From: a phage
Sequence record: PZ296772.1
DNA length: 64,000 nucleotides
Reading direction: 5' to 3' (one strand)
Shown in pieces: positions 20,495 through 36,843 of this stretch (its first letter is position 1; each line of letters opens with the position of its first letter). The notes beneath the pieces were generated by a model. That model was not told where the DNA came from. It did no database searches and saw nothing but the letters and a program-made list of their open reading frames with translations. Position numbers and translations under genes: made by a program.

Positions 20495-20522
20495 AGCCCC
20501 TTCCGAAAGGTTGGGGCTTTTT
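20495..20522 (+). terminator. Intrinsic terminator (repeat family copy 1)
   Basis: AGCCCCUUCC-GAAA-GGUUGGGGCU hairpin followed by UUUUU. Confidence 0.7.
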
Positions 20523-20567
20523 GGTATAATAATAAATAGATAAGTTAATTAACTTAGGAAAAGCAAC

Positions 20568-21032
20568 ATGAAATCATACGCTGAATTTTTGACTGAACAA
20601 TCTAGTTCAGATGTAAAAGCCGCTGCGATTGCAGCAATTCAAGCAGGTAAATATTCTTACAAAGACGCCTCCGATGAAGAACGTTTCCGTTTTATTAGAG
20701 ATTTTAAAGCCGAAGGTTTTACTAATGCTAATACTGTTAGCCGAGTTTTTAAAAGCCTAGCTGCATCAGGTGAATTGTTCCAGAAAGCTACAGGTAAAGC
20801 ACCTGCGCCAAAAGCGGACCCTAAAACAGCTCAAGAAAAAAATATCGCCAAAGGAATTATTTCTAAGTATGAAGCAATTCTTAAAGAGCTTTTAGTAATC
20901 AAAACAGAAGGCCAGAAACTGGCACGAGCACATAGTTTCAAAGATAATCCTCACGCTCATAGCCTTGAGTATGTTGAAGATATCCAAAAACTTATTAAAG
21001 ACCGTATCTGGTCTGCTAAACAAATTAAATAA
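20568..21032 (+). CDS. Capsid-targeted internal protein candidate
   Basis: 154-aa ORF starting MKSYAEFLTEQ (CTS-like, LTE at 8-10); Ala/Lys-rich. Confidence 0.6.
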   Translation: MKSYAEFLTEQSSSDVKAAAIAAIQAGKYSYKDASDEERFRFIRDFKAEGFTNANTVSRVFKSLAASGELFQKATGKAPAPKADPKTAQEKNIAKGIISKYEAILKELLVIKTEGQKLARAHSFKDNPHAHSLEYVEDIQKLIKDRIWSAKQIK

Positions 21033-21038
21033 TAGAAT

Positions 21039-21065
21039 GCCCCTTCCTTACGGTTGGGGCTTTTT
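21039..21065 (+). terminator. Intrinsic terminator (repeat family copy 2)
   Basis: GCCCCUUCC-UUAC-GGUUGGGGC hairpin followed by UUUUU. Confidence 0.7.
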
Positions 21066-21098
21066 GGTATCTAGGGCATAAAAATATTTCATAAAGAT

Positions 21099-21140
21099 GT
21101 TTACTTCTTCTAAGGACATGATACTATAGACTTATCAACC
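21099..21140 (+). promoter_or_regulatory. Early promoter cassette (GTTTAC -35, TACTAT -10)
   Basis: -35 21099-21104, -10 21122-21127, 17-bp spacer, followed by CTTATCAAC leader. Confidence 0.5.
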
Positions 21141-21155
21141 GCAGAGGAAAATGTT

Positions 21156-21461
21156 ATGAGTCTTTATACTGAACTGAATAAAAAATCTGAAGAATCTGCT
21201 GAAACTATTTTTAAAAACGTGCAAAAGCGTATTCTAGAAAAGATGTATAACACTGCAGCTAAAGGTGAAAAATCTTGCCGGTTCCCGATGAGGTGTTCTT
21301 CTGATTTATGCGCAAATACTATTGAATGGCTGGAAAGTGAAGGTCTTACGGTAGAGAAAAACCCGGCGACTTCTATTGATAGCGAATCATATATTAGTAT
21401 TTCTTGGGATAAACCTCGTACGAATGAAGGACACTACAAGTTGTTAAGTTGGAAAAATTAA
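21156..21461 (+). CDS. Hypothetical protein
   Basis: 101-aa ORF; no recognised motif. Confidence 0.5.
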   Translation: MSLYTELNKKSEESAETIFKNVQKRILEKMYNTAAKGEKSCRFPMRCSSDLCANTIEWLESEGLTVEKNPATSIDSESYISISWDKPRTNEGHYKLLSWKN

Positions 21462-21470
21462 AAATAACGA

Positions 21471-21510
21471 TGTACAAGCACCAAGGATGGTGATACTATA
21501 GACTTATCAA
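21471..21510 (+). promoter_or_regulatory. Early promoter cassette (TGTACA -35, CACCA/TGGTG inverted repeat, TACTAT -10)
   Basis: -35 21471-21476, inverted repeat 21479-21492, -10 21494-21499. Confidence 0.5.
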
Positions 21511-21529
21511 CTACAGAGGAGTAAACAAA

Positions 21530-21694
21530 ATGACTACTTTAATTATTTGGTTCGATGAAAATGAAGAAACATACTGTGTGAATATCGGTGAAAGTCCAAT
21601 GCCTGAATTTGAATCCTCAGATAAAAACTCTGTTGTATCTTGGGCTGAAGGTTATAAAGCCGCTAAAGGTGACGTTGAAATAATTTACATCTAA
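21530..21694 (+). CDS. Small hypothetical protein (54 aa, below ORF-track cutoff)
   Basis: ATG 8 nt after GAGGAG RBS; MTTLIIWFDENEETYCVNIG...; shares leader and first codons (ATGACTACTTT) with ORF at 26139. Confidence 0.5.
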   Translation: MTTLIIWFDENEETYCVNIGESPMPEFESSDKNSVVSWAEGYKAAKGDVEIIYI

Positions 21695-21720
21695 GTAAGT
21701 TTATGTTATAGTAATCACAT
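21684..21720 (+). promoter_or_regulatory. Early promoter-like element (TTTACA -35, TATAGT -10)
   Basis: -35 21684-21689, -10 21707-21712, 17-bp spacer, upstream of ORF 21741. Confidence 0.45.
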
Positions 21721-21740
21721 CAAATCAAGAGGAAAACAAA

Positions 21741-21968
21741 ATGGCTAAAGTTAGTATTGATGTCGTTGATTATGAATATACCGAAGAAGTTATTCGCAAC
21801 CGTCACCCTGAAGTTCGTATCGATTCAGCCCAAGATTCCAAGTTCTGGACAACTGAGCTTAATCTGAGTGGTCCTTATGAAGCTGTTAAGAAGTTCATGG
21901 TTGAAGAATACTGCGAAGGCATGCACCCGGAAGACGCCAAGTTTTATGTCAATTTGATTAAAAAATAA
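21741..21968 (+). CDS. Hypothetical protein
   Basis: 75-aa ORF. Confidence 0.5.
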   Translation: MAKVSIDVVDYEYTEEVIRNRHPEVRIDSAQDSKFWTTELNLSGPYEAVKKFMVEEYCEGMHPEDAKFYVNLIKK

Positions 21969-22005
21969 TTTACAAACTCTTGAGAGCAGAGTATAATGCT
22001 CTCAT
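21969..22005 (+). promoter_or_regulatory. Early promoter cassette (TTTACA, TATAAT, TGAGAGCA/TGCTCTCA inverted repeat)
   Basis: -35 21969-21974, -10 21992-21997, 8-bp inverted repeat flanking the -10; near-duplicate of cassette at 53512. Confidence 0.55.
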
Positions 22006-22038
22006 TGGATAATAAACCACCAATTGAAAGGTAATAAT

Positions 22039-22632
22039 ATGAACACACTGAAGAAACTTGTTGAATTCATCCGCACTAAACTGGGTACTGCTATGGCTAA
22101 AAATCTGACTGTCGAAGAACAGTATAATGCAGCTGCAGATAAGTTGATTACCCAAATCAGAGAACTAAAAACGGCTTCTGTTAAATCTATTAATGAAGAA
22201 AAACGTATTCGCGAACTTGTTATTGAAAAGAATAAGCAAGCCGCTTCTAAGGAACGTGAAATTCGTAAGCTCCTGGCTGAAGGACAAGATGTTACCATGC
22301 ATGCTAAGCTTGGTCTTCTGTATCGTCGAACTGCCGAACAACTTAATACAAAAGCTGACGGGTATGCCGCTATGCGAATTGAAATTGCTCGTAAGGTGGT
22401 TGAACTTGACGATGCTCGTCAGAATCTGGCAATCAAACTCGAATACATTCGTGAAACTCGAGCAGCCAATGCCCTTGGTATCTCTACGGCTGATGATGTA
22501 ATTGAAATCGCTGCACTGACTAAGGTTGATATCGAAGACACTCTGACTCGTGTTGAAACGTTCAATGGCACTCCAGCTGGTGTCGAAACCACTTCTGCCG
22601 ATGTACAAGAATATATTAACTCTTTGAAATAA
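22039..22632 (+). CDS. Coiled-coil protein
   Basis: 197-aa product from [16 protein letters not shown]; long heptad-rich helices; any PspA-like resemblance is compositional only. Confidence 0.5.
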
Positions 22633-22640
22633 AATAATAC

Positions 22641-22662
22641 GGAGGACTCAGGTCCTCCTTTT
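22641..22662 (+). terminator. Intrinsic terminator
   Basis: GGAGGAC-UCAG-GUCCUCC hairpin followed by UUUU. Confidence 0.65.
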
Positions 22663-22681
22663 GGATAATAAAGGAGTTAAC

Positions 22682-23278
22682 ATGCGAAACCAAAATAATG
22701 ATATTGACTCAATGTTCGAAGAGTTCCGAAATAAGGTAAATCCACCTACGTCTTTAGTTGATTCATTACGATATGTTGCAACTGGACGTAAATGGTACTG
22801 GTCGTCTTCTTATGAGACAACTGAATATGCAAATAACCGAAAATCTTTATTAGCCCCAGGTATTATGATTCATGATATCGGAGCTATTGCTAAACTAGTT
22901 GCAGACCATGATATTAGATTCACTGATTTCATTGCTCCTACATGGTCTGTTTGTTGTTTAAACACTGAACGGGACTATATCAGCGAACGCTCTGAAGATT
23001 ATTATGGTTTTAGAGATAAGCTCTTAAGGTCTAACATGTTTTATATCGATACTGAAGTTCTAGTCGATAATAAAAAATATTACTTTACGTTAATCGTCGA
23101 TTCTGAAACTATGTATGAAGGCAAGCCTTTGCTTAAAAGAGTTGATGCTTTAAGTGCTATTGATGCGCTTTATGAAACCATGGTTGTTAGTCCTAATTTC
23201 ACTAACAATTTAATCCTTGAGCAATTTATTATGGAATGTAGAGAATATGTCAAAGCCAACCCTATACATGCCAAGTAA
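22682..23278 (+). CDS. Hypothetical protein ending in FIMECR tail motif
   Basis: 198-aa product from MRNQNNDID (AAGGAG RBS); C-terminus ...EQFIMECREYVKANPIHAK. Confidence 0.55.
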   Translation: MRNQNNDIDSMFEEFRNKVNPPTSLVDSLRYVATGRKWYWSSSYETTEYANNRKSLLAPGIMIHDIGAIAKLVADHDIRFTDFIAPTWSVCCLNTERDYISERSEDYYGFRDKLLRSNMFYIDTEVLVDNKKYYFTLIVDSETMYEGKPLLKRVDALSAIDALYETMVVSPNFTNNLILEQFIMECREYVKANPIHAK

Positions 23279-23642
23279 GCCCTGGGCGTATGAATACAAG
23301 CGTAAATTAATCCCAAATGAAGTACTATTTGGCCCTATTTTAGCTTTAGCATTTTTAATCTTTATGATTATAGGAGCTGTTTTAGATTCTAGTGAAGTTA
23401 TATCGTCTGATGCAGCATTTTCATTAATGTTCGTCGCACCACTTATTGTACCATTTTTATTAATGCCTATTAACTGGGTAGGATATTGGCACCAAGGCCG
23501 TCATCACAGAGCTCGAGTTCGTGAGTGGAAAGTTCAGTGCGCAAAAGCCCAAGCTCAGTATGATGAAGCTGTTAAAAAGTATGAATATGAAGAAGCTATG
23601 GAATTCGTTAAGGAAATAAGATGCAAAAGCCTCAACTCTTAA
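23247..23642 (+). CDS. Membrane protein (2 TM) with basic/helical C-terminal tail
   Basis: Start chosen at MSKPTLYMPSK (alternatives 23217 or 23268); hydrophobic helices; tail ...EFVKEIRCKSLNS. Confidence 0.45.
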   Translation: MSKPTLYMPSKPWAYEYKRKLIPNEVLFGPILALAFLIFMIIGAVLDSSEVISSDAAFSLMFVAPLIVPFLLMPINWVGYWHQGRHHRARVREWKVQCAKAQAQYDEAVKKYEYEEAMEFVKEIRCKSLNS

Positions 23643-23980
23643 CCGTATGGCCTTCTCTTGGTGAGAATATTTTAATTTTTATCACGAGCGCCGGCATGGG
23701 ATTTGCCTTTGGATTAGTTGGATTTCTTATTGACGGCGTTGTGTTAGGATTTATAGGGAACACTGGTGGGTTCACAGACCAATGGCAGGACTTACGGTAT
23801 ACCCAAGCCTTTGCATCCATCGCATCCTTTTGTACTGTAGTCTATTTTTACTACGATTTTATAAACCATAACAAGAAAAATAAAAAGGTTTACGCTTCTC
23901 AAATGATTAGTTATAATGAACTCCTAGCTAGACGTGAAAATGAAACAATCGAAAACTTTATTAAGGAATGTAGAAAATGA
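23621..23980 (+). CDS. Membrane protein with C-terminal ENFIKECRK tail
   Basis: 119-aa ORF; 2-3 hydrophobic helices then Lys-rich linker and ENFIKECRK terminus. Confidence 0.55.
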   Translation: MQKPQLLTVWPSLGENILIFITSAGMGFAFGLVGFLIDGVVLGFIGNTGGFTDQWQDLRYTQAFASIASFCTVVYFYYDFINHNKKNKKVYASQMISYNELLARRENETIENFIKECRK

Positions 23981-24282
23981 GTAAGATTATTGAAATTAAA
24001 GTACCAGAGTTTAATGATGCCAAATCCGCTTCAGATGCAATTTATAAACTTCTGAATCAAGCTGAACGTATCGAAGAAGAAGCAACAAAGATCGCAGACC
24101 AATATTCTGTATCATTTTCTGTAGGTGATTATGGTAGCGGTCGTACTTATTATCCTAAGGGTGAAATCGTATCCCAGTGGATGAAAAATGAAATTGAAAA
24201 TAATGGCGGCGATGTTAAGCGTGAAGGTAATGGTTACGTTATTACTGAAGGTGCTTGGGTTTCGTCTTCTGCGTTGTGCTAA
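23977..24282 (+). CDS. Tandem paralog 1 of GWVSSSxxC family
   Basis: 101-aa ORF ending GAWVSSSALC; followed by two paralogs with near-identical spacers (TGCTAAGGAA..ATG). Confidence 0.55.
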   Translation: MSKIIEIKVPEFNDAKSASDAIYKLLNQAERIEEEATKIADQYSVSFSVGDYGSGRTYYPKGEIVSQWMKNEIENNGGDVKREGNGYVITEGAWVSSSALC

Positions 24283-24291
24283 GGAATCATT

Positions 24292-24564
24292 ATGTCTAAA
24301 GAACAAACCGAACTGGCTGAAGCCGTAGCAAAAATATATGCAGCTATTGAGGCTGCCAAAGAAATTGCTGATAAACAAAACACAACATTCGACTTGTATC
24401 CAGCTTATGGTATGGGTGGAACCTATCATTCACCAGGACATCTTAAAGCCGATCTTGAACGTTGTACAAAAAACGGTTATGCTGAATGGGCTGATGTTTA
24501 TCAATACGACTACAACCTGAGCCTTGAAGATGGTGGTTGGGTTGCATCTTCACACACTTGCTAA
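24292..24564 (+). CDS. Tandem paralog 2 of GWVSSSxxC family
   Basis: 90-aa ORF ending GGWVASSHTC. Confidence 0.55.
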   Translation: MSKEQTELAEAVAKIYAAIEAAKEIADKQNTTFDLYPAYGMGGTYHSPGHLKADLERCTKNGYAEWADVYQYDYNLSLEDGGWVASSHTC

Positions 24565-24573
24565 GGAAACCAT

Positions 24574-24771
24574 ATGTCTCGTGAATTAGATTGTGCTGTA
24601 CGTACCGCGGTAGCTGCTCTAGAAAACCTGTTCCAAATTGCAACAGAAGAACGCGAAGAAGTTACATTATGGATTGAAGATAACGCAGGTCTGAATCTCC
24701 AGGACGCGATCTCATTATCTAATAATAGCATTACTGTTCAAGGCTGGGTATCGTCTAGTTATTCTTGCTAA
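24574..24771 (+). CDS. Tandem paralog 3 of GWVSSSxxC family
   Basis: 65-aa ORF ending QGWVSSSYSC. Confidence 0.55.
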   Translation: MSRELDCAVRTAVAALENLFQIATEEREEVTLWIEDNAGLNLQDAISLSNNSITVQGWVSSSYSC

Positions 24772-24775
24772 AACA

Positions 24776-24814
24776 GTTTACAATAAGATAGGACTATGTT
24801 ATAGTAGTCCTATC
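24776..24814 (+). promoter_or_regulatory. Early promoter cassette (GTTTAC, TATAGT, GATAGGACTA/TAGTCCTATC inverted repeat)
   Basis: -35 24776-24781, -10 24800-24805, perfect 10-bp inverted repeat 24787-24796 / 24805-24814. Confidence 0.65.
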
Positions 24815-24833
24815 AAATTAAATGGAGTCCGCA

Positions 24834-25073
24834 ATGATTTATTACGAAAGTATCGGAACCAAAGTGGTTGGTAAAACCATTACTCGTGAAAAGTTTGCAA
24901 AGATATTCGATATGCGTTATAAAAAATCTGAACACAAAGGCATCCGATTCGAAGATGCGCACTGTGCAATTTGCCCTTATAATGAAGACGTAAATGGTAC
25001 AATCGTTCCATTGGTAGAGGCTTCACATGATGACCTCTGGGATGAATATAATATCGCATGTCGTGAAATTTAA
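24834..25073 (+). CDS. Hypothetical protein
   Basis: 79-aa product from MIYYESIGTK (GGAG RBS); ends ...YNIACREI. Confidence 0.5.
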   Translation: MIYYESIGTKVVGKTITREKFAKIFDMRYKKSEHKGIRFEDAHCAICPYNEDVNGTIVPLVEASHDDLWDEYNIACREI

Positions 25074-25101
25074 GTTAATGAATTAATCCGAGGAAAATAT
25101 T

Positions 25102-26058
25102 ATGATGTTAGTTATTGGTTCTCGTGCACTTCACTATCATGGTCTTATTGATTCTAGCGCTATCAAAAATAGTGATTGGGACTTTATTGCAGACCAAGGT
25201 TCTTGGAATGCATTCAAAAATCAAATGATGGGTGTATATGTTCATCAAGATAACCCTGATGTCCAAGTTTTCAAATGCTTCCATAATGGACGCGAAACTC
25301 ATTTTGAAGCATATATTGTTCCGGCAATCACTAATGTCCGTGAATTAGTCGGTGAACTCACTCCTGAAGATTTCACGTCTTCTTATGACCTTTTAAAATA
25401 CGCCAAGAAAAATTTGACTAAAGACCGTTTGACCGGGTTTTACTGGGCAACTCCTGAGATATGTCTTGCAATTAAAATGTCTCATCGTTTCAAGAAAAAT
25501 AATCCATTCTTTTTAAAGACTATGAACCATATTCAGTATCTTCGCGGTAAAGGTGTTACACTGAACGATGAACTTACTGAAATTATGCTGAAACGCCAGA
25601 AAGAAACTTTGAACTATGCTCACCCGGTTCTTGACACTTCTAAAAGTGCGTTCTTTAAAGATGACATCTATACATATGACCATGATACTATTCATGAAGC
25701 CATTGCACTAACTGACCAGCCTGCTTATAAGTTTTATATGAAAGAAGGCTCAGAAGTTATGACATCACGCGAGAAGTTCGAATCATTACCAGAAATGGTT
25801 AAATTAGCCGGTGTATATGAAGAAGCTTGTGTATTAGCTCTTGAACGTTCACAGATTCCTAACGACTTTAAAATCCATCCGAGTGATAGTTTTATGATGG
25901 CCCTTGAAAAGGTCTGTACATCAATCACATCAGGATGGTTCCGTGAGTTCGCTTGGGAAAATTATAGCAAAGTAGTAAGTATGTACCAAAGCTTAGGACA
26001 TGACGATTACGTCAAGCGTTTCAAACAAAACTTTCATATGGTAAAACCTTTCAAATAA
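25102..26058 (+). CDS. Hypothetical protein, possible nucleotidyltransferase-like N-terminus (weak)
   Basis: 318-aa ORF; N-terminal VIGSRA...(17 aa)...SDWDFI loosely resembles hG[GS]...DxD of Pol-beta-type NTases but spacing is long. Confidence 0.5.
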   Translation: MMLVIGSRALHYHGLIDSSAIKNSDWDFIADQGSWNAFKNQMMGVYVHQDNPDVQVFKCFHNGRETHFEAYIVPAITNVRELVGELTPEDFTSSYDLLKYAKKNLTKDRLTGFYWATPEICLAIKMSHRFKKNNPFFLKTMNHIQYLRGKGVTLNDELTEIMLKRQKETLNYAHPVLDTSKSAFFKDDIYTYDHDTIHEAIALTDQPAYKFYMKEGSEVMTSREKFESLPEMVKLAGVYEEACVLALERSQIPNDFKIHPSDSFMMALEKVCTSITSGWFREFAWENYSKVVSMYQSLGHDDYVKRFKQNFHMVKPFK

Positions 26059-26070
26059 TTTCACAAAACA

Positions 26071-26106
26071 GTTTACAAGGTCTGTAGTTGTTGATACTAT
26101 AGACCT
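26071..26106 (+). promoter_or_regulatory. Early promoter cassette (GTTTAC, TACTAT, AGGTCTGTAG/CTATAGACCT inverted repeat)
   Basis: -35 26071-26076, -10 26095-26100, inverted repeat with one mismatch. Confidence 0.6.
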
Positions 26107-26138
26107 ATCAAAACAAATGAGTGAATGGAGATATAAAA

Positions 26139-26339
26139 ATGACTACTTTGAATAAACGTTTCGGTAAAGCTAAACCTGGTTGTGCAGCAGAACGTCGTTA
26201 TGTTTTCGCTCAGTTAGAAGATGTAGAGTATCAGATTAATCAAGTTCACATTACTGGTATCGAGCCTATGTGTGGCCTTGAAGCTCTTCGTGAAGTTCGT
26301 GATGGGTATCGTCGTGACATCGAAGAAATGTCAAAATAA
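26139..26339 (+). CDS. Hypothetical protein
   Basis: 66-aa product from MTTLNKRFGKAKPG (GGAG RBS). Confidence 0.5.
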   Translation: MTTLNKRFGKAKPGCAAERRYVFAQLEDVEYQINQVHITGIEPMCGLEALREVRDGYRRDIEEMSK

Positions 26340-26340
26340 G

Positions 26341-26378
26341 TGTACAAACTGATAGGGCTATGTTATAGTAGTCCTATC
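26341..26378 (+). promoter_or_regulatory. Early promoter cassette (TGTACA, TATAGT, GATAGGGCTA/TAGTCCTATC inverted repeat)
   Basis: -35 26341-26346, -10 26364-26369, imperfect 10-bp inverted repeat. Confidence 0.55.
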
Positions 26379-26395
26379 AACTTGAGGAGAATATT

Positions 26396-26701
26396 ATGAA
26401 ATTAACAGAAACCAACCGAATCGGTCTTTTTACAATATTTGCATCGCTTTTTTACGCAGCTCTTTCTGTTGCAGTATTACAAAAGGCTTACGATATGGAT
26501 GGTGTTCCTGGTTGTATATTTTTATCACCGTTTTTATTATTCGTCGGAGCTTTGATATTATATGCCACGTCCGGTTTAGACCATAATGTCTGGGTCAATT
26601 ATAAACGTAAATTGTCCGAAGAAGAACACGCAGAAGCTCGTAAAAAAGCTATTGAATCTACCAATCTAGAAAATTTCATTAAAGAATGTCGAGGAAAATA
26701 A
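26396..26701 (+). CDS. Membrane protein (2 TM) with C-terminal ENFIKECRGK tail
   Basis: 101-aa ORF; two hydrophobic helices, charged helical linker, ENFIKECRGK terminus. Confidence 0.6.
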   Translation: MKLTETNRIGLFTIFASLFYAALSVAVLQKAYDMDGVPGCIFLSPFLLFVGALILYATSGLDHNVWVNYKRKLSEEEHAEARKKAIESTNLENFIKECRGK

Positions 26702-26702
26702 T

Positions 26703-27389
26703 ATGAATAGTTCTAAAGTGTTTAATAGTCAAGCTCGTGCAGTAGGTGGTTTTGCCGGCGGTATTTCTAATGATAAAATCAAGAACGAGCCTATGTTCTT
26801 CAACTGTAGTTTAGAATTTGCTTATAATAACGGCGGTCCTATTACTCGCTCTTTCATTATGAACTTGCCGGATGATTGGAACACCGACCAGGTTGTATTT
26901 GATTCACGAGTCCACATGCTGATGCCTGGTTGGTATCCTGCAATCCCAGGCTATCACCATGATGACGTACCACGCCCAGATATTCCAGTTGGTCAACACT
27001 TTATTACTGCAGGACAACCTGACTATGACAACCCTCGTTACCATTCTGAACATATTCTTGGTCTTGTTAACGCTGATGTGTGTCCTACTCATTTTGCAAC
27101 AGGAACTGCGGAGTTCAGTCAGATTCCTGATGGCGAACTTATCTATCGCCAGTGGCACAAAGAAGTCCTCGAAAAAATTGAAAAAGGTGAACTAGAGAAA
27201 TGGGAAGCTCCGGACCGTACTCTTCTTCAGTTTGATTGGCAAACATGGCACACTGGTTCTCGTGCAATTAGTAATGGATGGCGTTGGTTCGGACGTGTAT
27301 CTCGTAATACAGACAGAGTTAAAAAGATTACCAATGAAATTCGTGTCAATGCCCAAGTTTATCTGGAATTCCCTATGGAAGGCTGGTAA
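26703..27389 (+). CDS. Hypothetical protein (His-rich, possible metal-binding)
   Basis: 228-aa ORF with YHHDD and HSEH clusters; function not assignable from sequence. Confidence 0.5.
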   Translation: MNSSKVFNSQARAVGGFAGGISNDKIKNEPMFFNCSLEFAYNNGGPITRSFIMNLPDDWNTDQVVFDSRVHMLMPGWYPAIPGYHHDDVPRPDIPVGQHFITAGQPDYDNPRYHSEHILGLVNADVCPTHFATGTAEFSQIPDGELIYRQWHKEVLEKIEKGELEKWEAPDRTLLQFDWQTWHTGSRAISNGWRWFGRVSRNTDRVKKITNEIRVNAQVYLEFPMEGW

Positions 27390-30104: not shown

Positions 30105-30145
30105 GTTTACGCTTAAGTATTAATATGGTATAATTGCTCTATCAA
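30105..30145 (+). promoter_or_regulatory. Early promoter cassette (GTTTAC -35, TATAAT -10)
   Basis: -35 30105-30110, -10 30129-30134, 18-bp spacer, CTATCAAAAC leader. Confidence 0.5.
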
Positions 30146-30164
30146 AACAAACAAGGAAACAAAA

Positions 30165-30494
30165 ATGAAAACGTATAAAGAATTTATCACTGAAGTTACA
30201 TTATCTGCGGAACAGAAAGCTGCTATCGAAGAAGGTAAAAATCCCAAAGTAACATATAAAGTAAATAGTAAAGGCGTTTTTGATGGTTTGGTTCAAGACC
30301 CTGAATTGAAAAAAGCTCTTTCTAAAACTAATGCGTACTTTGCTCCTAAATTTAACACAGCCGGTGTACTTATTGGATTGGATGTATTCAACTCTAAAGG
30401 TGTTCTATCTAATGCCTTTGGTTATGCCGCTAACAAAATTACCAAAGCTGCATGGGAATCCAATACCAAACAAGCTCAAAAGCCTAGAGTATAA
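30165..30494 (+). CDS. Capsid-targeted internal protein candidate
   Basis: 109-aa ORF starting MKTYKEFITEVTLSAEQ (CTS-like, ITE at 8-10). Confidence 0.65.
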   Translation: MKTYKEFITEVTLSAEQKAAIEEGKNPKVTYKVNSKGVFDGLVQDPELKKALSKTNAYFAPKFNTAGVLIGLDVFNSKGVLSNAFGYAANKITKAAWESNTKQAQKPRV

Positions 30495-30666
30495 TTCTTG
30501 CCTAATAAAGGGAAACGCAACCTCTCCTCATGAACGTCGAGTCCTCTGAGTGATGTACCTTTTCCAACCTGTAATAAGGCCGAGCGCAATGCGGTAATGG
30601 GTTTACATAGCGAGTCGAAGGACCTAACATGTGCCACGGAACGGCCCCAACCTTAAGAGAAACTAA

Positions 30667-31206
30667 ATGAGAACATTTTTAACCGGACCTTATCTATCCC
30701 TGATGAATGCTTTTACACACCATTCTGATGCTAGAGTAGAAGAAATTTGTAAGAACGGTTATGTCCCACCATTTGAAGACGTACTCAAGCAGTACTGTAC
30801 ACTTCGTTTAGACGGCGGCAGACAATCAGGTAAATCAATTGCTGTGACTAACTTTGCTGCTAATTGGCTGTATGATGGCGGAACAGTTATTGTTCTTTCT
30901 AATACTTCAGCTTATGCTAAAATTTCTGCCGGCAACATTGAAAAAGAATTTTCTCGTTATTCTAGCGACGATATTCGATTCCGTTTATTTACTGATTCTG
31001 TTCGTAGTTTTATTGGCAATGAAGGTTCTAAATTCCGTGGATTAACGCTTTCTCGTATTCTGTATATAATTGACGAGCCTATTAAAGCTCCTGATATGGA
31101 TAAGATTTACAATGTCCATATTAAAACAGTCCAACACTGTTGCAAAAGCAAATATTGCATCGGCGGTAATGCTCGTCCTCAATTTTTTGTGATTGGAATG
31201 CAATGA
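30667..31206 (+). CDS. Small P-loop NTPase
   Basis: 179-aa ORF with Walker A GGRQSGKS and Walker B-like ILYIIDEP. Confidence 0.6.
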   Translation: MRTFLTGPYLSLMNAFTHHSDARVEEICKNGYVPPFEDVLKQYCTLRLDGGRQSGKSIAVTNFAANWLYDGGTVIVLSNTSAYAKISAGNIEKEFSRYSSDDIRFRLFTDSVRSFIGNEGSKFRGLTLSRILYIIDEPIKAPDMDKIYNVHIKTVQHCCKSKYCIGGNARPQFFVIGMQ

Positions 31207-31511
31207 TGACCACTATTGAAGTTTTTGAATATTGTTATAACAGTCCAGTATGCAATAAAAGGGCTCTTGTAGAAAATTACGAGATTTACCATTTTAAACC
31301 TAAACGATACCGTTTGACTAAAGGACTGTTTGCAGGGCAGCAGGTTCTTTGTACTGCTCCTAATGCACGGTTGATGACTAGTATTCCGCATTTCAAAATG
31401 GAATTTATTGATGGGCCATTTAAGGGATTAATCACTCAAAGTTTAATGGCGTTTAATTCCGACCCGTTTTTGATTAAAGAAAAAACTTGGATAAATTTAT
31501 TTTCTAATTGA
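31203..31511 (+). CDS. Hypothetical protein (coupled to P-loop NTPase)
   Basis: 102-aa ORF overlapping upstream stop (ATGATG). Confidence 0.5.
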   Translation: MMTTIEVFEYCYNSPVCNKRALVENYEIYHFKPKRYRLTKGLFAGQQVLCTAPNARLMTSIPHFKMEFIDGPFKGLITQSLMAFNSDPFLIKEKTWINLFSN

Positions 31512-31517
31512 GGTTAT

Positions 31518-31880
31518 ATGAAAGCATATCAAATTCTTGAAGGTGCACATAAAGGCACTATTTATTTTGAAGACGGCACTCAAGCCCGGATTATTGTCTC
31601 TAAGACTTTTAAAGAAGACGCTATTGTAGACCCGGAAATTTTCTACGGTTTGATTGCCCGTGAAATTGAAATTGAACATCAACCTAAAGTTAAAATTGAA
31701 GGTGGTCAACACCTGAACGTTAATGTTCTGCGTCGTGAAACTCTGGAAGATGCAGTTAAGCATCCAGAAAAATATCCGCAGTTGACCATCCGTGTATCCG
31801 GTTATGCAGTTCGCTTTAACTCTCTGACTCCGGAACAGCAGCGCGACGTTATCGCTCGTACCTTTACTGAGAGTCTATAA
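31518..31880 (+). CDS. grcA: Autonomous glycyl radical cofactor (GrcA/YfiD-like)
   Basis: 120-aa ORF whose C-terminal 60 aa carry the glycyl-radical motif [25 protein letters not shown], near-identical to the enterobacterial GrcA/PFL C-terminus. Confidence 0.9.
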
Positions 31881-31888
31881 TAGCTAAA

Positions 31889-32104
31889 TTGATTATAGAA
31901 GGGTCTGAAGATGTTTTAAAATGTTTTGCCGCCTGGTTTAGTTGCTCAGGCGAGCAATCATTCATTGAAGCATTTAGAATGGGTGATATTACTGGAAACT
32001 ATCCGGCAACTGATATCACTGTACGTGGATATGGTATTAATGAGCCTATCCAATTGGTCGAATATGACCTTGCCACCGATGAGGAAATTCCTTATGTCGA
32101 TTGA
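31889..32104 (+). CDS. Hypothetical protein
   Basis: 71-aa ORF. Confidence 0.45.
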   Translation: MIIEGSEDVLKCFAAWFSCSGEQSFIEAFRMGDITGNYPATDITVRGYGINEPIQLVEYDLATDEEIPYVD

Positions 32105-32360
32105 AGATATTAAAGGCTACAAGCCGCATACCGACGATAAAATCGGTAAAGTGAACGCTATTAAAGATGCAGAAGTCCGTCTTGGATTGTTGTTTGATGC
32201 TCTGATTGAAGAAGCATATATCTTGAAAGAAAATGAAACAGAGCAACAAACCAAAGAAGATATGGATGCAGTACAGGCTCTTAAGTATGCTAAGCAACAT
32301 CTAAAAGAAGCCAGCATGTGGGCCTGTCGTGCAGTATTTCGACCTGAGGAAAAATACTAA
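32094..32360 (+). CDS. Hypothetical protein
   Basis: 88-aa product from MSIEDIKGYKPHTDDK (GAGGA RBS); the longer ORF-track start overlaps upstream gene out of frame. Confidence 0.5.
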   Translation: MSIEDIKGYKPHTDDKIGKVNAIKDAEVRLGLLFDALIEEAYILKENETEQQTKEDMDAVQALKYAKQHLKEASMWACRAVFRPEEKY

Positions 32361-32575
32361 TGGCTTCTACTATTACCGGGTTATTGGACTTTCAAGAAAA
32401 AGTCAACAAAATTTGTAGTGAATACTTAAAGTATCTTGAAGAAGACCTTGAAGATTGTAAGGAAGAAGGCGAAGAAGACTATGCTGACCAACGTCGTCGC
32501 CAAATCGAAGAGATGAGGCATTTCGCCAATATGGTATCTAAAGAATCTTGGGCTTTAACTCCATTTTATCAATAA
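32360..32575 (+). CDS. Hypothetical acidic protein
   Basis: 71-aa ORF. Confidence 0.45.
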   Translation: MASTITGLLDFQEKVNKICSEYLKYLEEDLEDCKEEGEEDYADQRRRQIEEMRHFANMVSKESWALTPFYQ

Positions 32576-32579
32576 AGTA

Positions 32580-32630
32580 GTTTACTTCTCCTCTAGTTGT
32601 GTTACTATAGACATGTCAACTAGAGGAGAA
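32580..32630 (+). promoter_or_regulatory. Early promoter cassette with 14-bp perfect inverted repeat
   Basis: -35 GTTTAC 32580-32585, -10 TACTAT 32603-32608, TTCTCCTCTAGTTG (32586-32599) / CAACTAGAGGAGAA (32617-32630); right arm contains the RBS. Confidence 0.65.
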
Positions 32631-32636
32631 ATCAAA

Positions 32637-33095
32637 ATGACTATCAATTCAGACGTTTTTATCCGCCGTAATAAACTCCGTCGAATCTTTGAAACGGAGT
32701 TCCGCAAAATAAATGCCGGTATAAAAGATGCTGCAAAGTCTCTTGGGCTACCCGGCTTTCATATCAAGTATTCTCAACATCTCTTAGATCGTGCCATCCA
32801 GAGAGAAATAGATGAGAATTACGTTTTTGAATTATTTCGTAAAGTAAAAAATCATGTTAAAGAAGTTGCAGAATTTTTATCAATGCCGGCACGTCCAGAT
32901 GTTGATGAAGATTTTGTCGAAGGTGTCGAATATCGCCCGGGCCGTTTAGAAATAACTGATGGAAATCTTTGGTTAGGACTTACAGTTTGTCGCGAAAATC
33001 CAGCGTTCAAAATGAAGACTCTTCAATGCAGAATGGCTATTATTAACAGTAAACGACTACCAGGAAAAGCTTCTAAAGCAGTGATTAAAATCTAG
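32637..33095 (+). CDS. Hypothetical protein
   Basis: 152-aa product from MTINSDVFIRRNK. Confidence 0.5.
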   Translation: MTINSDVFIRRNKLRRIFETEFRKINAGIKDAAKSLGLPGFHIKYSQHLLDRAIQREIDENYVFELFRKVKNHVKEVAEFLSMPARPDVDEDFVEGVEYRPGRLEITDGNLWLGLTVCRENPAFKMKTLQCRMAIINSKRLPGKASKAVIKI

Positions 33096-33103
33096 AGGTA
33101 AAC

Positions 33104-33646
33104 ATGAGAAAAGCACTACTCGCTGGTCTATTTGCTCTTTCATTATCAGCACATAGCTCCGAGCATACTTTTAGTAATGTCCAACTCGATAACTTGAATT
33201 ATGCTTATCAGTTTGGGGAGCAGTTTTCTAAGGATGGAAAATTTAAAACGCATGAAAATATGCATAAGAAAGGACTTGGATACATAATGGCCGCAATACT
33301 ATGGCAGGAATCATCTGCTGGTATTAATCTTAAAGATAAGAAAGGTCACCATGCGTATGGAATGTTCCAAAACTATCTACCAACAATGAGGGCAAGAATT
33401 AACCAGCTTGGTTATAATATGACTGATGCCCAAATTAAGAAAATGCTATCTAAGCGGTCTAATTCAACCAGATGGGCTTATATCGAATTTTCTTATTGGT
33501 TAAATATACATAACGGGGATATAAGAAAAGCTATATCCTCATACAATGCGGGATGGAAGACAAGTGCTGGAAGTAAATATGCTTCTGAAGTCCTAGAAAA
33601 GGCTAATTACCTTAAATCAAATAAACTACTGGAAATAAAAGAATGA
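33104..33646 (+). CDS. Secreted lytic transglycosylase-like protein (SLT domain)
   Basis: 180-aa ORF with N-terminal signal peptide (MRKALLAGLFALSLSAHS), catalytic-type WQESS and SYNAG motifs. Confidence 0.6.
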   Translation: MRKALLAGLFALSLSAHSSEHTFSNVQLDNLNYAYQFGEQFSKDGKFKTHENMHKKGLGYIMAAILWQESSAGINLKDKKGHHAYGMFQNYLPTMRARINQLGYNMTDAQIKKMLSKRSNSTRWAYIEFSYWLNIHNGDIRKAISSYNAGWKTSAGSKYASEVLEKANYLKSNKLLEIKE

Positions 33647-33990
33647 CCAAAATGTTGGCTTTAATAGTTGGCTTGGTTTCATTTAACGCTCTTGCTAATA
33701 CTACATATACTGATGTAACGGAGTATACAAACAGAACGGCGTCTGATTATTGTGGTAAAAGTCAAGAGTGTAAAGTAGATTTTTCACAAAAATTGTTATA
33801 TGCGTATAAAGACGGAGAAAAAGATGGGGCGTCTAGTAGGTTCAAGGCGTCTACCTTAATTAAACGATATCATAAAAAATGGCAAATATTAGAATGCTCG
33901 GTGGCGGAACCTAAAGATAAGGCAGCATGCAATTCTATGGTAGACCGCCTAGTTGACTCTTATACTAGAGGACTTGCAGCAAGTGATTAA
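33643..33990 (+). CDS. Secreted/periplasmic small protein
   Basis: 115-aa ORF with signal peptide MTKMLALIVGLVSFNALA and 4 Cys. Confidence 0.5.
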   Translation: MTKMLALIVGLVSFNALANTTYTDVTEYTNRTASDYCGKSQECKVDFSQKLLYAYKDGEKDGASSRFKASTLIKRYHKKWQILECSVAEPKDKAACNSMVDRLVDSYTRGLAASD

Positions 33991-34450
33991 AAACTATATC
34001 AAGGGCGATATTGTCGCCCTGTTTTCTAAAGGTAATAATATTGCTCATGGGTGTAATTGTTTTCATACAATGGGCGCCGGTGTAGCAGGACAATTAGCAA
34101 AGGCTTATCCAAAAATTCTGGAAGCCGATAAACTTCAAACTGTATATGGAGATGAGTCTAAACTCGGGACTTATTCAGTTTATGAAAAATATTTTAAGAC
34201 CCATAAAGCTTATTGCTTTAATCTTTATACACAGTTTGAGCCGGGACCTAATTTTGAGTGCTCTGCTTTAATGAATTGTATAATAGAATTAAATGAATTC
34301 GGAAAGAATAAGATAACAAAGCCTGTAATTTATATGCCAAGAATTGGTGCAGGTATCGGTGGTGGAAACTGGGATGTCATCGAAGAGATTTTAGATACAT
34401 ATTCCACTAAACTAGAAATTGTGATTGTTGATTGGGAACCATTGTTATGA
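33983..34450 (+). CDS. Macro-domain-like protein (ADP-ribose binding/hydrolase fold); start uncertain, no in-frame ATG
   Basis: Motifs NNIAHGCNCFHTMGAGVAGQL and PRIGAGIGGGNW resemble macro-domain signatures; first in-frame starts are TTG 33953 or GTG 33983 (GAGGA 11 nt upstream of GTG). Confidence 0.5.
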   Translation: MIKNYIKGDIVALFSKGNNIAHGCNCFHTMGAGVAGQLAKAYPKILEADKLQTVYGDESKLGTYSVYEKYFKTHKAYCFNLYTQFEPGPNFECSALMNCIIELNEFGKNKITKPVIYMPRIGAGIGGGNWDVIEEILDTYSTKLEIVIVDWEPLL

Positions 34451-34659
34451 ATATACACTATCCACATCCATATGACCCAAAGAATAAGACAGTAATTATT
34501 CGTCAATGGGAACGCATTTGTCGTACTAAATGTCCAATTAATAGTCCACATGATGTAGATAAAGACTACATCGGAACATTCGTTGAATATACCTTTATTG
34601 ATAAGAAAGGCCGTAAACAACATGTAGAAGAATATTGCTTAAAGGTGACATGGCTATGA
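34447..34659 (+). CDS. Hypothetical protein
   Basis: 70-aa product from MNIHYPHPYDPK. Confidence 0.45.
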   Translation: MNIHYPHPYDPKNKTVIIRQWERICRTKCPINSPHDVDKDYIGTFVEYTFIDKKGRKQHVEEYCLKVTWL

Positions 34660-34862
34660 GTCAAACAAAAATTCTTACAGGTGCTAAATGCGAAAAATGC
34701 GAATGGCCTGTAGTTTTTGCTTTATGCAATGACGAAATGGCTTGTGATTTTGATTATTGGTGTTACTGTTCGAACAAAGGTTGTAGCAATCATAAAGGTG
34801 AAGGGTTTTACTCAGGATTTTACCCTTACCCGGATTTCGTTAAAGAAGGTGAACCTAAATGA
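34656..34862 (+). CDS. Cys-rich small protein (possible zinc ribbon)
   Basis: 68-aa product with CEKCEW...CNDEMACD...CYCSNKGC. Confidence 0.45.
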   Translation: MSQTKILTGAKCEKCEWPVVFALCNDEMACDFDYWCYCSNKGCSNHKGEGFYSGFYPYPDFVKEGEPK

Positions 34863-35041
34863 AATTGACTAAAGAAGAGAAAACTAAACTGTTCGAACTT
34901 ATCCATGACCTATTGGATGAACAAGCAGCCACCAGTGCGTATGATGAATACGCTCCTTTGACAGACGAAGAATATCAAGCATTGATGGAATCATTTGACA
35001 GGAAAGAACAAGAACTCATTGACTATGTGAATTCACTATAA
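34859..35041 (+). CDS. Hypothetical acidic protein
   Basis: 60-aa ORF. Confidence 0.4.
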   Translation: MKLTKEEKTKLFELIHDLLDEQAATSAYDEYAPLTDEEYQALMESFDRKEQELIDYVNSL

Positions 35042-35050
35042 GGGACTCTT

Positions 35051-35632
35051 ATGGCTAGTTTAATTTTTACATATGCAGCAATGAACGCAGGTAAGTCTGC
35101 TTCATTACTTACTGCCGCACATAACTATAAAGAACGTGGCATGGGTGTATTAGTTCTTAAACCGGCTATTGATACTCGTGATTCAAAAGGTGAAATAGTC
35201 TCTCGCATTGGTATTCGTCAGGATGCCAATATAATTACAAAAGACATGGATATCTTTGAATTTTATAAATGGGCTGCAGCACAAAAGGATATTCACTGTG
35301 TATTTGTTGACGAAGCTCAGTTCTTAACTACTGAAAAGGTGTATCAACTTAGTCGTATTGTTGACGTATACAATGTGCCGGTAATGGCATATGGACTACG
35401 AACAGATTTTAAAGGTAATCTATTTGAAGGTTCTCAAGCATTAATGGCTATCGCCGATAAGCTTGTTGAACTTAAAGGTGTCTGTCATTGCGGTAAAAAG
35501 GCCACAATGGTAGCTAGAGTCGCGGAAGACGGACTTCCAATTACAGATGGCAGTCAAATTGAAATTGGTGATACTGATAGATATGTGTCATTATGCCGGA
35601 AGCATTGGAATGATTTGACAGGGTTGTTATAA
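35051..35632 (+). CDS. tk: Thymidine kinase
   Basis: 193-aa ORF with P-loop AAMNAGKSASLLT and C-terminal Zn-binding CHCGKKA...C motif; T4 tk is 193 aa. Confidence 0.93.
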   Translation: MASLIFTYAAMNAGKSASLLTAAHNYKERGMGVLVLKPAIDTRDSKGEIVSRIGIRQDANIITKDMDIFEFYKWAAAQKDIHCVFVDEAQFLTTEKVYQLSRIVDVYNVPVMAYGLRTDFKGNLFEGSQALMAIADKLVELKGVCHCGKKATMVARVAEDGLPITDGSQIEIGDTDRYVSLCRKHWNDLTGLL

Positions 35633-35659
35633 ATACTAATATCTAACCAAGAGGTATAT

Positions 35660-35872
35660 ATGCAGCAATTAAACGAAAGACAACTTCGTAATCTTACTGT
35701 AACCCAATTGGATGAAATCCGAAGAGAATTAGGACATTCTATTTCTCATTTAAACGAGGATATCCGTCAAACTGGTTCTAAAGCTGATTATACACGCAAG
35801 CGCAAGCTGGAAAAATACCTCGCAGATGTTAAGGCCGTCCAAAGGCGAAAAATAAATACTGGCCAAAATTAA
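35660..35872 (+). CDS. Hypothetical protein
   Basis: 70-aa basic ORF. Confidence 0.45.
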
Positions 35873-35884
35873 CAGGAGGCCTAT

Positions 35885-36187
35885 ATGGCCTTAAGAGCGA
35901 TAGCCATTGTGGCGATGCTGGGGTTTTTTGCAGCAACGACTCCTATTGTTGGCACTGCATATGTTGACCCGTACTTTGATAACTTTATGGAATCAGGGAT
36001 TAAAAACGTATATACTTTGTTCGAAATTCAAAATGTCGAGAATTCTGAAAAATTCTATAAGTATATGGCAAAGCATTACAAAAATAGCCCCTGTGATGAT
36101 GCATTTGAATGCCAGGAACAAGGCATAAAAACTGCCAGACAATTTGCCGAGTTCATGAAAATAAAATTAGAGCCTACATCTATCTAA
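35885..36187 (+). CDS. Hypothetical protein with N-terminal hydrophobic segment
   Basis: 100-aa ORF; possible signal anchor MALRAIAIVAMLGFFAATTPIVG. Confidence 0.5.
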   Translation: MALRAIAIVAMLGFFAATTPIVGTAYVDPYFDNFMESGIKNVYTLFEIQNVENSEKFYKYMAKHYKNSPCDDAFECQEQGIKTARQFAEFMKIKLEPTSI

Positions 36188-36191
36188 TCAA

Positions 36192-36219
36192 AGCCCCTTC
36201 CGAAAGGTTGGGGCTTTTT
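36192..36219 (+). terminator. Intrinsic terminator (repeat family copy 3; part of 36-bp direct repeat)
   Basis: AGCCCCUUCC-GAAA-GGUUGGGGCU + UUUUU; 36184-36219 is identical to 36807-36842. Confidence 0.7.
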
Positions 36220-36220
36220 G

Positions 36221-36228
36221 TATAAATA
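36221..36228 (+). promoter_or_regulatory. T4-type late promoter TATAAATA
   Basis: Exact TATAAATA immediately after the terminator, 25 nt upstream of ORF 36253. Confidence 0.55.
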
Positions 36229-36252
36229 TCCTTGTAAACTAAGAGAGGATAT

Positions 36253-36810
36253 ATGAAATTTTTAAAATACATAAGTTGGGTTGTTCTTGTTCCTATAGAT
36301 TGGATCGCAGCGATTTTAGCAATTATTCTAGCACCATTTGTAGTTCCATTCCATAGTGAAAAAACAGGTAAACTACCTTATGGCTTTGACTGGATGATGA
36401 CTTACGATAATCCTATCGATGGTGACCGTGGTCATGTTGAACGTTGGTCTAAAATACGTAAAATTCCTGTTATAGGTAAATATGCTCAACGCGTAGCTTG
36501 GTTATGGCGCAACAAAGCATATAATTTTTCGTATCATGTTTTAGGTCGCGAAGCTTCATCAGAATGGCACTATAAAGGCAACGCTGAAACTAAATCTGGA
36601 TCTCCTGATCCGGCACATCATGGATATCTTTTAGTTTGGAACGAGTCTGCATGGGGATTATTCGCTGCTATACCTTATCTTAAGGTTGGTGGTATTACAT
36701 TTTATCTGCGTGTTTACTGTGGTTGGAAACTTAAGAGTCTTTTGAGTCGTCCTATTCCACGCGCAATGCTTTCATTCCATATCAACCCTTTACGATATTA
36801 CAAAAACTAA
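36253..36810 (+). CDS. Membrane-anchored protein expressed from a late promoter
   Basis: 185-aa ORF with N-terminal TM segment; bracketed by identical terminator repeats; preceded by TATAAATA. Confidence 0.6.
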   Translation: MKFLKYISWVVLVPIDWIAAILAIILAPFVVPFHSEKTGKLPYGFDWMMTYDNPIDGDRGHVERWSKIRKIPVIGKYAQRVAWLWRNKAYNFSYHVLGREASSEWHYKGNAETKSGSPDPAHHGYLLVWNESAWGLFAAIPYLKVGGITFYLRVYCGWKLKSLLSRPIPRAMLSFHINPLRYYKN

Positions 36811-36814
36811 TCAA

Positions 36815-36843
36815 AGCCCCTTCCGAAAGGTTGGGGCTTTTTT
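36815..36843 (+). terminator. Intrinsic terminator (repeat family copy 4; part of 36-bp direct repeat)
   Basis: AGCCCCUUCC-GAAA-GGUUGGGGCU + UUUUUU. Confidence 0.7.

Follow-up and report, generated by a model that had tools for sequence, protein, structure and literature searches.

The DUF7338 cassette behind rI

The subject of this study is a hairpin that occurs in four copies in a 64-kb stretch of phage DNA (sequence record PZ296772.1; the complete stretch of 64,000 nucleotides (nt) is referred to as the window). Its copies flank single-gene units at two loci, one behind the lysis-inhibition gene rI and one behind the stable RNA rnaC. The window belongs to a Mosigvirus (RB69-like, Tevenvirinae) and, over a test stretch, shows 100% identity to Escherichia phage vB-Eco-KMB38 (KMB38) and 99.8% identity to phage PTK. 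The genes, hairpins and promoters for which individual window coordinates are given below are all on the + strand.

The gene order at the first locus is tk, rI.1, rI, a gene coding for a protein of 185 amino acids (aa), and a DUF7438 gene (mobD.2a in RB69), continuing towards nrdC.11. The upstream neighbour of the cassette gene is rI (35885..36187), which codes for an antiholin, the regulator of lysis inhibition (Pfam Antiholin, E=5.7e-24; phrog_1246; existing annotations). The 185-aa protein, encoded at 36253..36810, is assigned to Pfam family DUF7338 (E=5e-62) and to phrog_2143, a family without assigned function. Its alignment-based AlphaFold model (pLDDT 95.4) has a hydrophobic N-terminal helix (residues 9-33) and a compact alpha/beta domain. 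From this helix, which is predicted to be transmembrane, we predict a membrane location; an envelope-associated accessory function is a low-confidence guess. The label "T4-type holin" that is found in some records was rejected, since neither the sequence nor the fold of the protein resembles a known holin.

The cassette gene is bracketed by two direct repeats of 36 bp (base pairs) which are 100% identical (repeat family D7). The left repeat (36184..36219) comprises the rI stop codon, a TCAA spacer, the third copy of the hairpin (36192-36215) and T5, and is a putative rI terminator. The right repeat (36807..36842) comprises the stop codon of the cassette gene, the same TCAA spacer, the fourth copy (36815-36838) and a T-run. 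Both were delineated by sequence, fold and repeat search, and both open with C followed by TAA, the latter being the stop codon of rI or of the 185-aa open reading frame (ORF). An earlier note on this DNA, made from the sequence alone, had described identical 36-bp repeats which each start at the stop codon of the upstream gene and flank this single gene, and the present analysis bears this out in full.

The late-promoter motif TATAAATA (36221..36228) abuts the T-run of the left hairpin and is found 24 nt ahead of the cassette ATG; based on motif match and conservation it is the predicted promoter of the cassette gene. The stretch gtataaatatccttgtaaactaagagaggatatATG is unchanged in all carriers of the cassette. 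As a word, TATAAATA is not over-represented in the window (7 observed vs 9.3 expected), so that its weight derives from position and conservation. Late expression of the cassette gene is predicted from this motif. A resident T4-type early promoter, GTTTAC-17-TATAGT (36854..36882, family D5), is found behind the right hairpin and probably serves the genes downstream of the cassette; in genomes with an empty site it comes after the single hairpin. The first of these genes is the DUF7438 gene (36910..37089), a mobD.2a homologue according to domain search and RB69 annotation. The earlier note had placed the late promoter inside an otherwise early region. The motif itself is present as described, but the region is not purely early because another TATAAATA motif (35628..35635, identified by motif match) precedes rI.1/rI.

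The G+C content of the cassette (0.38) equals that of its flanks (0.37), so that a foreign-origin (moron) signature was rejected. Among nuclease and recombinase genes no match was obtained: the cargo matches DUF7338 only, and its neighbours match Antiholin and DUF7438. Within about 2.5 kb of the cassette, endonuclease and integrase families are absent from all 10 contexts found. A mobile element of the homing-endonuclease or integrase type was thus rejected, there being no such gene inside or adjoining the cassette.

A family of terminator-like hairpins

The hairpin AGCCCCTTCC-GAAA-GGTTGGGGCT, followed by T5, has three exact copies (20495, 36192 and 36815) and one loop variant (21039), which are the four positions listed in the earlier note. 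The exact 24-mer AGCCCCTTCCGAAAGGTTGGGGCT occupies 20495-20518, 36192-36215 and 36815-36838, always on the + strand, and had 0 matches in 100 dinucleotide-preserving shuffles. The relaxed pattern GCCCCTTCC-N3-5-GGTTGGGGC yielded four matches versus 0 expected and adds the copy with a TTAC loop (21039-21060).

In the fold of each copy, a stem of 6-8 pairs leads to a 2x2 UU/UU internal loop, 2 further pairs and a GAAA (or UUAC) loop, and U5-6 comes behind it. Free energies range from -16 to -18 kcal/mol; relative to shuffled sequences, the z-scores are between -2.3 and -4.3. All four copies are positioned 0-8 nt past a stop codon, or about 50 nt past rnaC, and the next start codon is another 33-95 nt away. 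They thus combine what is expected of an intrinsic terminator: a G+C-rich stem-loop with an adjoining U-run, at the 3' end of a unit and on the coding strand. About nine strong terminator-like hairpins are found on the + strand of the 64-kb window, and four of them belong to this family (a simple script scan reported eight, including three of the family, and the TTAC copy at 21039 was counted as the ninth).

Pairing is kept by compensatory change among homologues, as is also expected of a terminator. In the T4 hairpin, a change from TT to GA closes the internal loop, and in the right-hand copy of phage ECO111 5-P (L018, ~4310) a change from TT to AA converts the internal loop into a perfect stem. 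Contig L041 carries the compensatory replacement of GCCCC/GGGGC by GGCCC/GGGCC, and three metagenome alleles (L037-L039, 3064-3085) have GGTCGGGGC in the 3' arm. Judged by these alleles, the stem accepts changes that keep or improve pairing, and the loops vary freely (GAAA, TAAA, TTAT, TTAC, TTTC). We infer that the four hairpins are copies of one predicted intrinsic-terminator family, which would be the rnaC terminator of T4-type phages and, in Mosigvirus, the rI terminator as well.

An identical 22-nt hairpin with AAA/TTTT flanks, amounting to about 29 nt of identity, occurs in Salmonella phage GSW6 (Epseptimavirus, T5-like; L040, 2005-2033). It is intergenic there, 3' of an annotated hypothetical gene and inside an unannotated cysteine-rich reading frame. 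This match is too long for chance and thus points to horizontal exchange of a terminator or to strong convergence.

Presence and absence of the cassette at rI

The whole locus is present in about 23 of 160 Mosigvirus-level database records, which include some 12-13 from one LF82 isolate series. Among the matches listed or read, the remaining Mosigvirus records align in two pieces that span ~1376-1382 nt rather than 2001 nt, being about 623 bp shorter. Thus the predicted unit of promoter, one gene and terminator has its gene absent in about 137 of the 160 records. In each of the ten empty-site genomes that were read (SF, NHEP10, phiC120, APCEc01, UKE1, moskry, RB69, Av-05, phiE142 and one IMG/VR contig), the arrangement is rI-TAA-TTTACT-hairpin-T5/6, followed by the same early promoter. 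Comparison with relatives had been set beforehand as a test of the cassette, and its outcome was as anticipated: the gene is absent from most Mosigvirus records, with a single hairpin at the exact place.

Carriers of the cassette do not form one clade when the left flank (1.15 kb) is compared. The carrier NHEP29 differs from its nearest empty-site genome, NHEP10, by only 0.9% in this flank, and the distance is 1.0% both for LF82-1 and its nearest empty-site genome UKE1 and for TH58 and moskry. Carrier alleles were gathered singly from GenBank phages and from contigs encoding the protein; an IMG/VR scan with rI gave 3 loci. The diversity of the cassette (0.3-3.3%) is similar to that of the flanks (about 1-4%). 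Because both diversity and G+C content match those of the flanks, the cassette appears to be an old segregating optional gene and not a recent foreign arrival. By these measures, the Mosigvirus gene pool has long included the DUF7338 cassette at rI as an optional gene.

The same data accommodate an explanation in which the repeats are passive. A good terminator would simply have been reused, the cassette would have come in on a single occasion, either through illegitimate recombination or through moron-type accretion, and its alleles would have been spread by crossovers in the flanks, the hairpins not being exchange sites. Mosigvirus flanks are 96-99% identical, which implies frequent crossovers, and the diversity of the cassette is as old as that of its flanks. 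The unrelated T5-like phage GSW6 has the same hairpin as a putative terminator, so that retention for terminator function alone is conceivable. We nevertheless consider passive repeats unlikely, since the breakpoints fall exactly at the hairpin, which holds for both loci and for three genera or more.

Junctions of the cassette

The junctions were read in 21 carrier alleles (11 from GenBank phages and 10 from other assemblies or metagenome contigs). A hairpin is present on both sides of the cassette in all of them; none of these 21 has the gene in the same context without flanking repeats, an arrangement which the earlier note had named as evidence against a cassette.

The right junction is constant in the 21 carriers. 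It consists of the gene, TAA, TCAA(A/T) and a hairpin with a GAAA loop, and it continues into one of the downstream haplotypes GCATTTAGCA, GCATCTATCA or GTATCTATCA, which are also found behind the single hairpin of empty genomes. On the left, the spacer is the resident TTTACT/TTTACCT in 19 of the 21 carriers, and the loop is GAAA, TAAA, TTAT or TTAC, with TTAT also occurring in empty-site hairpins. This left copy is followed by the invariant cassette head TTTTTGTATAAATATCC... Thus, the left copy is resident on its 5' side and of cassette type on its 3' side, and the right copy has the opposite composition. This is the pattern of a reciprocal exchange, and it places the exchange inside the hairpin or its T-run. 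It also speaks against passive repeats, as the loop of the left copy changes with the resident allele and the right copy is always of cassette type.

In PTE-Eco05, the left loop is TTAT and the right loop is GAAA, which implies one exchange 3' of the loop. The left loop TAAA of AV109 and AV114 (L012 / L030) looks like a hybrid of the resident TTAT and the cassette-type GAAA; it could be due to a crossover inside the 4-nt loop or to a point mutation.

A TCAA spacer on the left side as well is found only in KMB38 (the window) and PTK, to which the perfect 36-bp repeat is consequently confined. Other carriers, among them NHEP29 and ESh27, have a repeat of about 29 bp (hairpin and T-run), in which the loop sometimes differs. 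The 36-bp repeat is therefore likely to be a derived state. The simplest explanation is gene conversion in KMB38/PTK, with the right copy as donor and the left copy as recipient, which would have extended the repeat from ~29 to 36 bp. The notion of a removable cassette bounded by repeats, as put forward in the earlier note, thus holds with respect to the optional gene and the single hairpin at empty sites, but not with respect to the 36-bp repeat as the general boundary.

A second hairpin-bounded cassette behind rnaC

The first hairpin is associated with the end of the tRNA cluster. A homologue of rnaC (species 1 RNA), encoded at 20306..20444 (start approximate) and near-identical to the 3' part of T4 rnaC, is found between tRNA-Arg and this hairpin, and a conserved tail of 50 nt precedes the latter. 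The homologue is reported neither by ARAGORN nor by Rfam; the Rfam search of 19500-21200 returned two tRNAs only, and rnaC apparently has no model there. Hairpin copy 1 with its GAAA loop and T-run (20495..20522; sequence and fold) is the putative rnaC terminator and forms the left edge of a hypervariable slot. The hairpin is conserved there in T4, Tequatrovirus KAW1E185, Gaprivervirus RZ, other Mosigviruses and one metagenome contig. In an alignment of seven genomes, identity is near-complete through rnaC, hairpin and T-run and is lost directly thereafter.

The slot holds a gene for a 154-aa protein (20568..21032; phrog_2280, without assigned function), which is the cargo of a cassette bounded by the hairpins at 20495 and 21039. 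Ahead of the gene is AATAAATA (20531..20538), a late-promoter-like motif with one mismatch; the exact motif TATAAATA is found at the equivalent place in KAW1E185 and L041. The region 20523-20540 has six extra bases (GGTATAATAATAAATAGATAAG) compared to relatives (GGTATAAATAGATAAG), and these convert TATAAATA into AATAAATA, which possibly weakens the predicted late promoter of the 154-aa gene. Hairpin copy 2 (TTAC loop) with T5 (21039..21065; sequence and fold) is the putative terminator of this gene. It is followed by a T4-type early promoter, GTTTAC-17-TACTAT (21099..21127; families D3/D5), with which it forms a composite of the stem-loop and early-promoter type discussed below.

This slot is polymorphic in Mosigvirus and in T4 relatives. 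Mosigvirus PHB12 lacks the 154-aa gene and has a single hairpin, on either side of which its sequence is identical to that of the window, and T4 shows the same empty state, with a single hairpin behind rnaC. In Mosigvirus PhAPEC2, the gene is present together with both hairpin copies, each having a GAAA loop. Tequatrovirus KAW1E185 has a homologue of 157 aa behind the rnaC hairpin. In LF82-33, the same rnaC hairpin is followed by TTTTTTGTATAAATA and an unrelated gene of 208 aa. Many Tequatrovirus alignments end no more than 10 nt past hairpin 1 or hairpin 2.

Links between loci and genera

The junction of hairpin, T-run and (G)GTATAAATA precedes unrelated cargo in LF82-33, KAW1E185 and L041. 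That three unrelated cargo genes are found behind the same hairpin and late promoter is again at odds with passive repeats. L041, a metagenome scaffold (MUNK18-1), has a two-gene unit behind rnaC, coding for a 157-aa protein and for DUF7338 and flanked by hairpins at 806-827 and 1953-1974. Both of these hairpins have the compensatory variant GGCCC...GGGCC, which suggests that the flanking copies evolve in concert or come from one exchange event. As this variant is rare, its presence on both sides is a further argument against passive repeats.

Homologues of the DUF7338 protein with 60-77% aa sequence identity are encoded in Gaprivervirus, Gelderlandvirus, Karamvirus, RB16-like, Klebsiella T4-like and Felixounavirus phages. 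Four T4-like genomes were inspected, and each has the gene in the tRNA/internal-protein region rather than at rI. Gaprivervirus RZ has rnaC, the identical hairpin, TTTTTTATAAATC, a DUF7338 gene (77% aa sequence identity) and a different terminator; the late-promoter-type motif behind its hairpin is TATAAATC. The Mosigvirus-type DUF7338 protein, in turn, is encoded at rI in all 10 contexts found, and a donor locus with >95% identity is not among them. We thus consider it most likely that the tRNA/rnaC slot is the home of DUF7338 and that the gene moved to the rI terminator via the shared hairpin. The association of DUF7338 with different hairpin-marked loci in different genera also counts against passive repeats.

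While adjoining sequence diverges, the hairpin is conserved base for base across genera. This might be taken to indicate that it is recognised by a sequence- or structure-specific protein (a nuclease or recombinase) which initiates targeted exchange, the cassettes then being true mobile elements. However, neither the cassette nor its immediate neighbours code for a nuclease, integrase or homing endonuclease, and the tolerance of stem variants with retained pairing fits a terminator better than a sequence-specific site. We therefore regard such a targeted process as highly improbable.

Proposed mechanism of cassette exchange

Taken together, we consider it likely, though by no means certain, that the hairpin copies serve as portable homology for the exchange of single-gene cassettes. 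Each unit starts with the hairpin and its T-run, which a late-promoter motif adjoins. Behind this motif are a ribosome-binding site and the cargo gene, and then a second hairpin and the resident early promoter. The hairpins would terminate the transcripts of rI, rnaC and the cargo gene, and the abutting late promoter would make the cargo autonomous. Because the copies are identical direct repeats of ~24-36 bp, they could in addition provide each unit with portable homology at its edges. Exchange within the hairpin would delete the unit and leave one hairpin behind, and it could also insert or replace a unit. Such exchange might proceed by homologous recombination of the phage, between copies in one genome or in co-infecting genomes, or by replication slippage. 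Since every product keeps an upstream terminator and a downstream promoter, transcription of the neighbours would be undisturbed.

For the cassette in the window, a deletion of 623 bp would leave the junction ...ATCTAATCAA-hairpin-TTTTTTGCATTTAACAG, and an excised circle would carry the junction ...AAAAACTAATCAA-hairpin-TTTTTGTATAAATA. Termination, late transcription, the recombination events and their direction are all deduced from comparison of sequences.

Slippage might also be the sole process: a replication fork would slip or switch template at a cruciform or hairpin, a copy choice independent of recombinases, and would thus delete or duplicate what is between the repeats. At 24-36 bp the repeats are short, and they are strongly structured (about -18 kcal/mol); deletions between short direct repeats which flank or contain palindromes are typical products of slippage, as is generally known. 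The junctions observed by comparison fit slippage and strand exchange equally well. Slippage covers loss and tandem duplication, but not the replacement by unrelated cargo seen in LF82-33 or the transfer between loci and genera. These require exchange between different molecules, and we consider it very unlikely that slippage is all that is involved.

Several points weigh against exchange at the hairpins. Its basis is wholly comparative, being made up of the repeats, the fold, the compensatory stem variants, the insertions and deletions at both loci and the chimeric junctions. For homologous recombination to be efficient, 24-36 bp is a short stretch of homology. Two identical copies are evidently not obligatory, because the gene in RZ has a different downstream terminator. 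The precise deletion product of the window allele, rI-TAATCAA-hairpin-T6-GCATTT, is in no database record, as would be expected for passive repeats; its best full-length matches are empty sites with a TTTACT spacer (93%). For any given lineage, gain and loss cannot be told apart, because TTTACT-type alleles yield the same junctions both ways. The main weakness is that scattered occupancy alone does not prove repeated events at the hairpin, because flanks recombine freely: they are 97-98% identical, so that ordinary flank crossovers can spread presence/absence alleles.

Comparison with known systems

In phages RB49 and phi1, variable ORFs are flanked by cassettes of a stem-loop and an early promoter (PeSLs), which function both as terminators and as promoters (Arbiol et al., 2010, PMC2839356). 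PeSL-flanked ORFs are deleted, and mini-circles form via recombination between the flanking elements (PMC2839356). Comeau et al. (2014, PMC4122927) extended PeSLs to T4/PST and KVP40/nt-1 and added a middle-promoter version (PmSL). The present elements resemble PeSLs and PmSLs in being composites of a terminator stem-loop and a promoter between an upstream stop codon and the next start codon. They likewise recur within hyperplastic regions, on either side of single non-essential ORFs which some phages have and close relatives lack, with one element at the empty site, so that a module plugs in and leaves its neighbours undisturbed. At both loci of the window there is an intergenic stable stem-loop in a hyperplastic region with ORF differences and a single element at the empty site, as is characteristic of PeSLs.

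Copies 2 and 4 (hairpin, then GTTTAC-17-TAYWRT) fit the layout of PST/T4-type PeSLs. According to motif matches, an early promoter adjoins these two copies, whereas copies 1 and 3 abut AATAAATA and TATAAATA instead. The left module thus differs from a PeSL in being a hairpin with a predicted late promoter (TATAAATA). Furthermore, the shared repeat is a G+C-rich putative terminator of 24-36 bp rather than a promoter-centred motif of ~100 bp, and the hairpin is the putative rnaC terminator that is conserved across several genera. Mini-circles are known for PeSLs, whereas the present case is built on the comparison of genomes. The term "late promoter" is absent from PMC2839356, and the accessible text of PMC4122927 has early and middle versions only. 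Mosigvirus and RB69 are mentioned in neither text, and we found no application of PeSLs to Mosigvirus/RB69 and no mention of DUF7338 in the literature searched. The idea of modular shuffling is already known for T4-type phages from the PeSL model, from which the left module of terminator and late promoter differs.

Many T4-type early promoter cassettes (GTTTAC...GTTATAGTAGTCCTATCAAA; repeat families D1-D5) are distributed over 17474-39744. In the D1-D5 copies, the -10 region is within the inverted repeat ATAGGACTA...TAGTCCTAT. These promoter cassettes look like classical PeSL-type elements and would mark 17474-39744 as a hyperplastic region.

Morons (Hendrix et al., 2000), in the summary given in PMC2839356, were defined without conserved flanks and were assumed to enter by illegitimate recombination, often in opposite orientation and with a deviant composition. 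Like a moron, the unit at rI adds one gene, together with a predicted promoter and a predicted factor-independent terminator of its own, between genes that are adjacent in relatives. In contrast to a moron, it is co-oriented with its neighbours, has the G+C content of its surroundings and is delimited by repeats whose sequence the empty site already contains.

Copy 1 is the homologue of the T4 hairpin GCCCCGACC-GAAA-GGTTGGGGC-T5 after rnaC. The DNA behind this hairpin is known as a hypervariable zone of T-even phages (Repoila et al., 1994, as cited in PMC2839356 and PMC4122927). Differing from T4, the same hairpin has in Mosigvirus been recruited ~15.7 kb away as putative rI terminator, with extra copies bounding the cassettes. 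The published accounts consulted do not describe the hairpin as a boundary for shuffling.

About half of the 13 T4 deletions studied by Mosig, Colowick and Pietz (1998) involved GGGC, sometimes with GCCC as inverted repeats, as related in PMC2839356. The deletions, with endpoints at GGGC/GCCC, remove small non-essential ORFs, and the present hairpin contains GCCCC...GGGGC. However, they arose in the laboratory and affected the 56-dda region of T4, and the tie to the hairpin would be one of resemblance. For the targeted exchange considered above, the likeness of GCCCC...GGGGC to these GGGC/GCCC pairs (Mosig et al., per PMC2839356) is a favourable point, as a lead and not as a test. The hairpin might more generally be a dedicated, attachment-like exchange site for late-gene cassettes in Tevenvirinae, recognised by a phage or host factor specific for its structure or sequence (a pathway of the Mosig-1998 type), which we consider quite unlikely. 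If this were true, genes headed by a terminator and a late promoter could hop between the rnaC slot, the rI slot, genera and perhaps T5-like phages.

Implications

T4-type phages are mosaic, and small optional genes are believed to account for much of their host adaptation. The PeSL shuffling model rests on three phage pairs. The rI locus provides an unusually clean natural test case for it, since the RB69 group is well sampled and its carrier and empty alleles number in the dozens. The locus is a clean natural example, neither a new principle nor a demonstrated event. It also offers a simple experimental system, as excision of 623 bp is detectable by polymerase chain reaction and alleles with 36-bp, 29-bp or loop-mismatched repeats are available. 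The hairpin site at rI suggests itself as a neutral, self-insulated landing site for the engineering of therapeutic Mosigviruses. Diagnostic differences in spacer and loop place the exchange inside the 22-nt hairpin. With this locus, the shuffling idea would be extended from early and middle promoters to a module of terminator and late promoter, and a terminator alone may be sufficient as portable homology.

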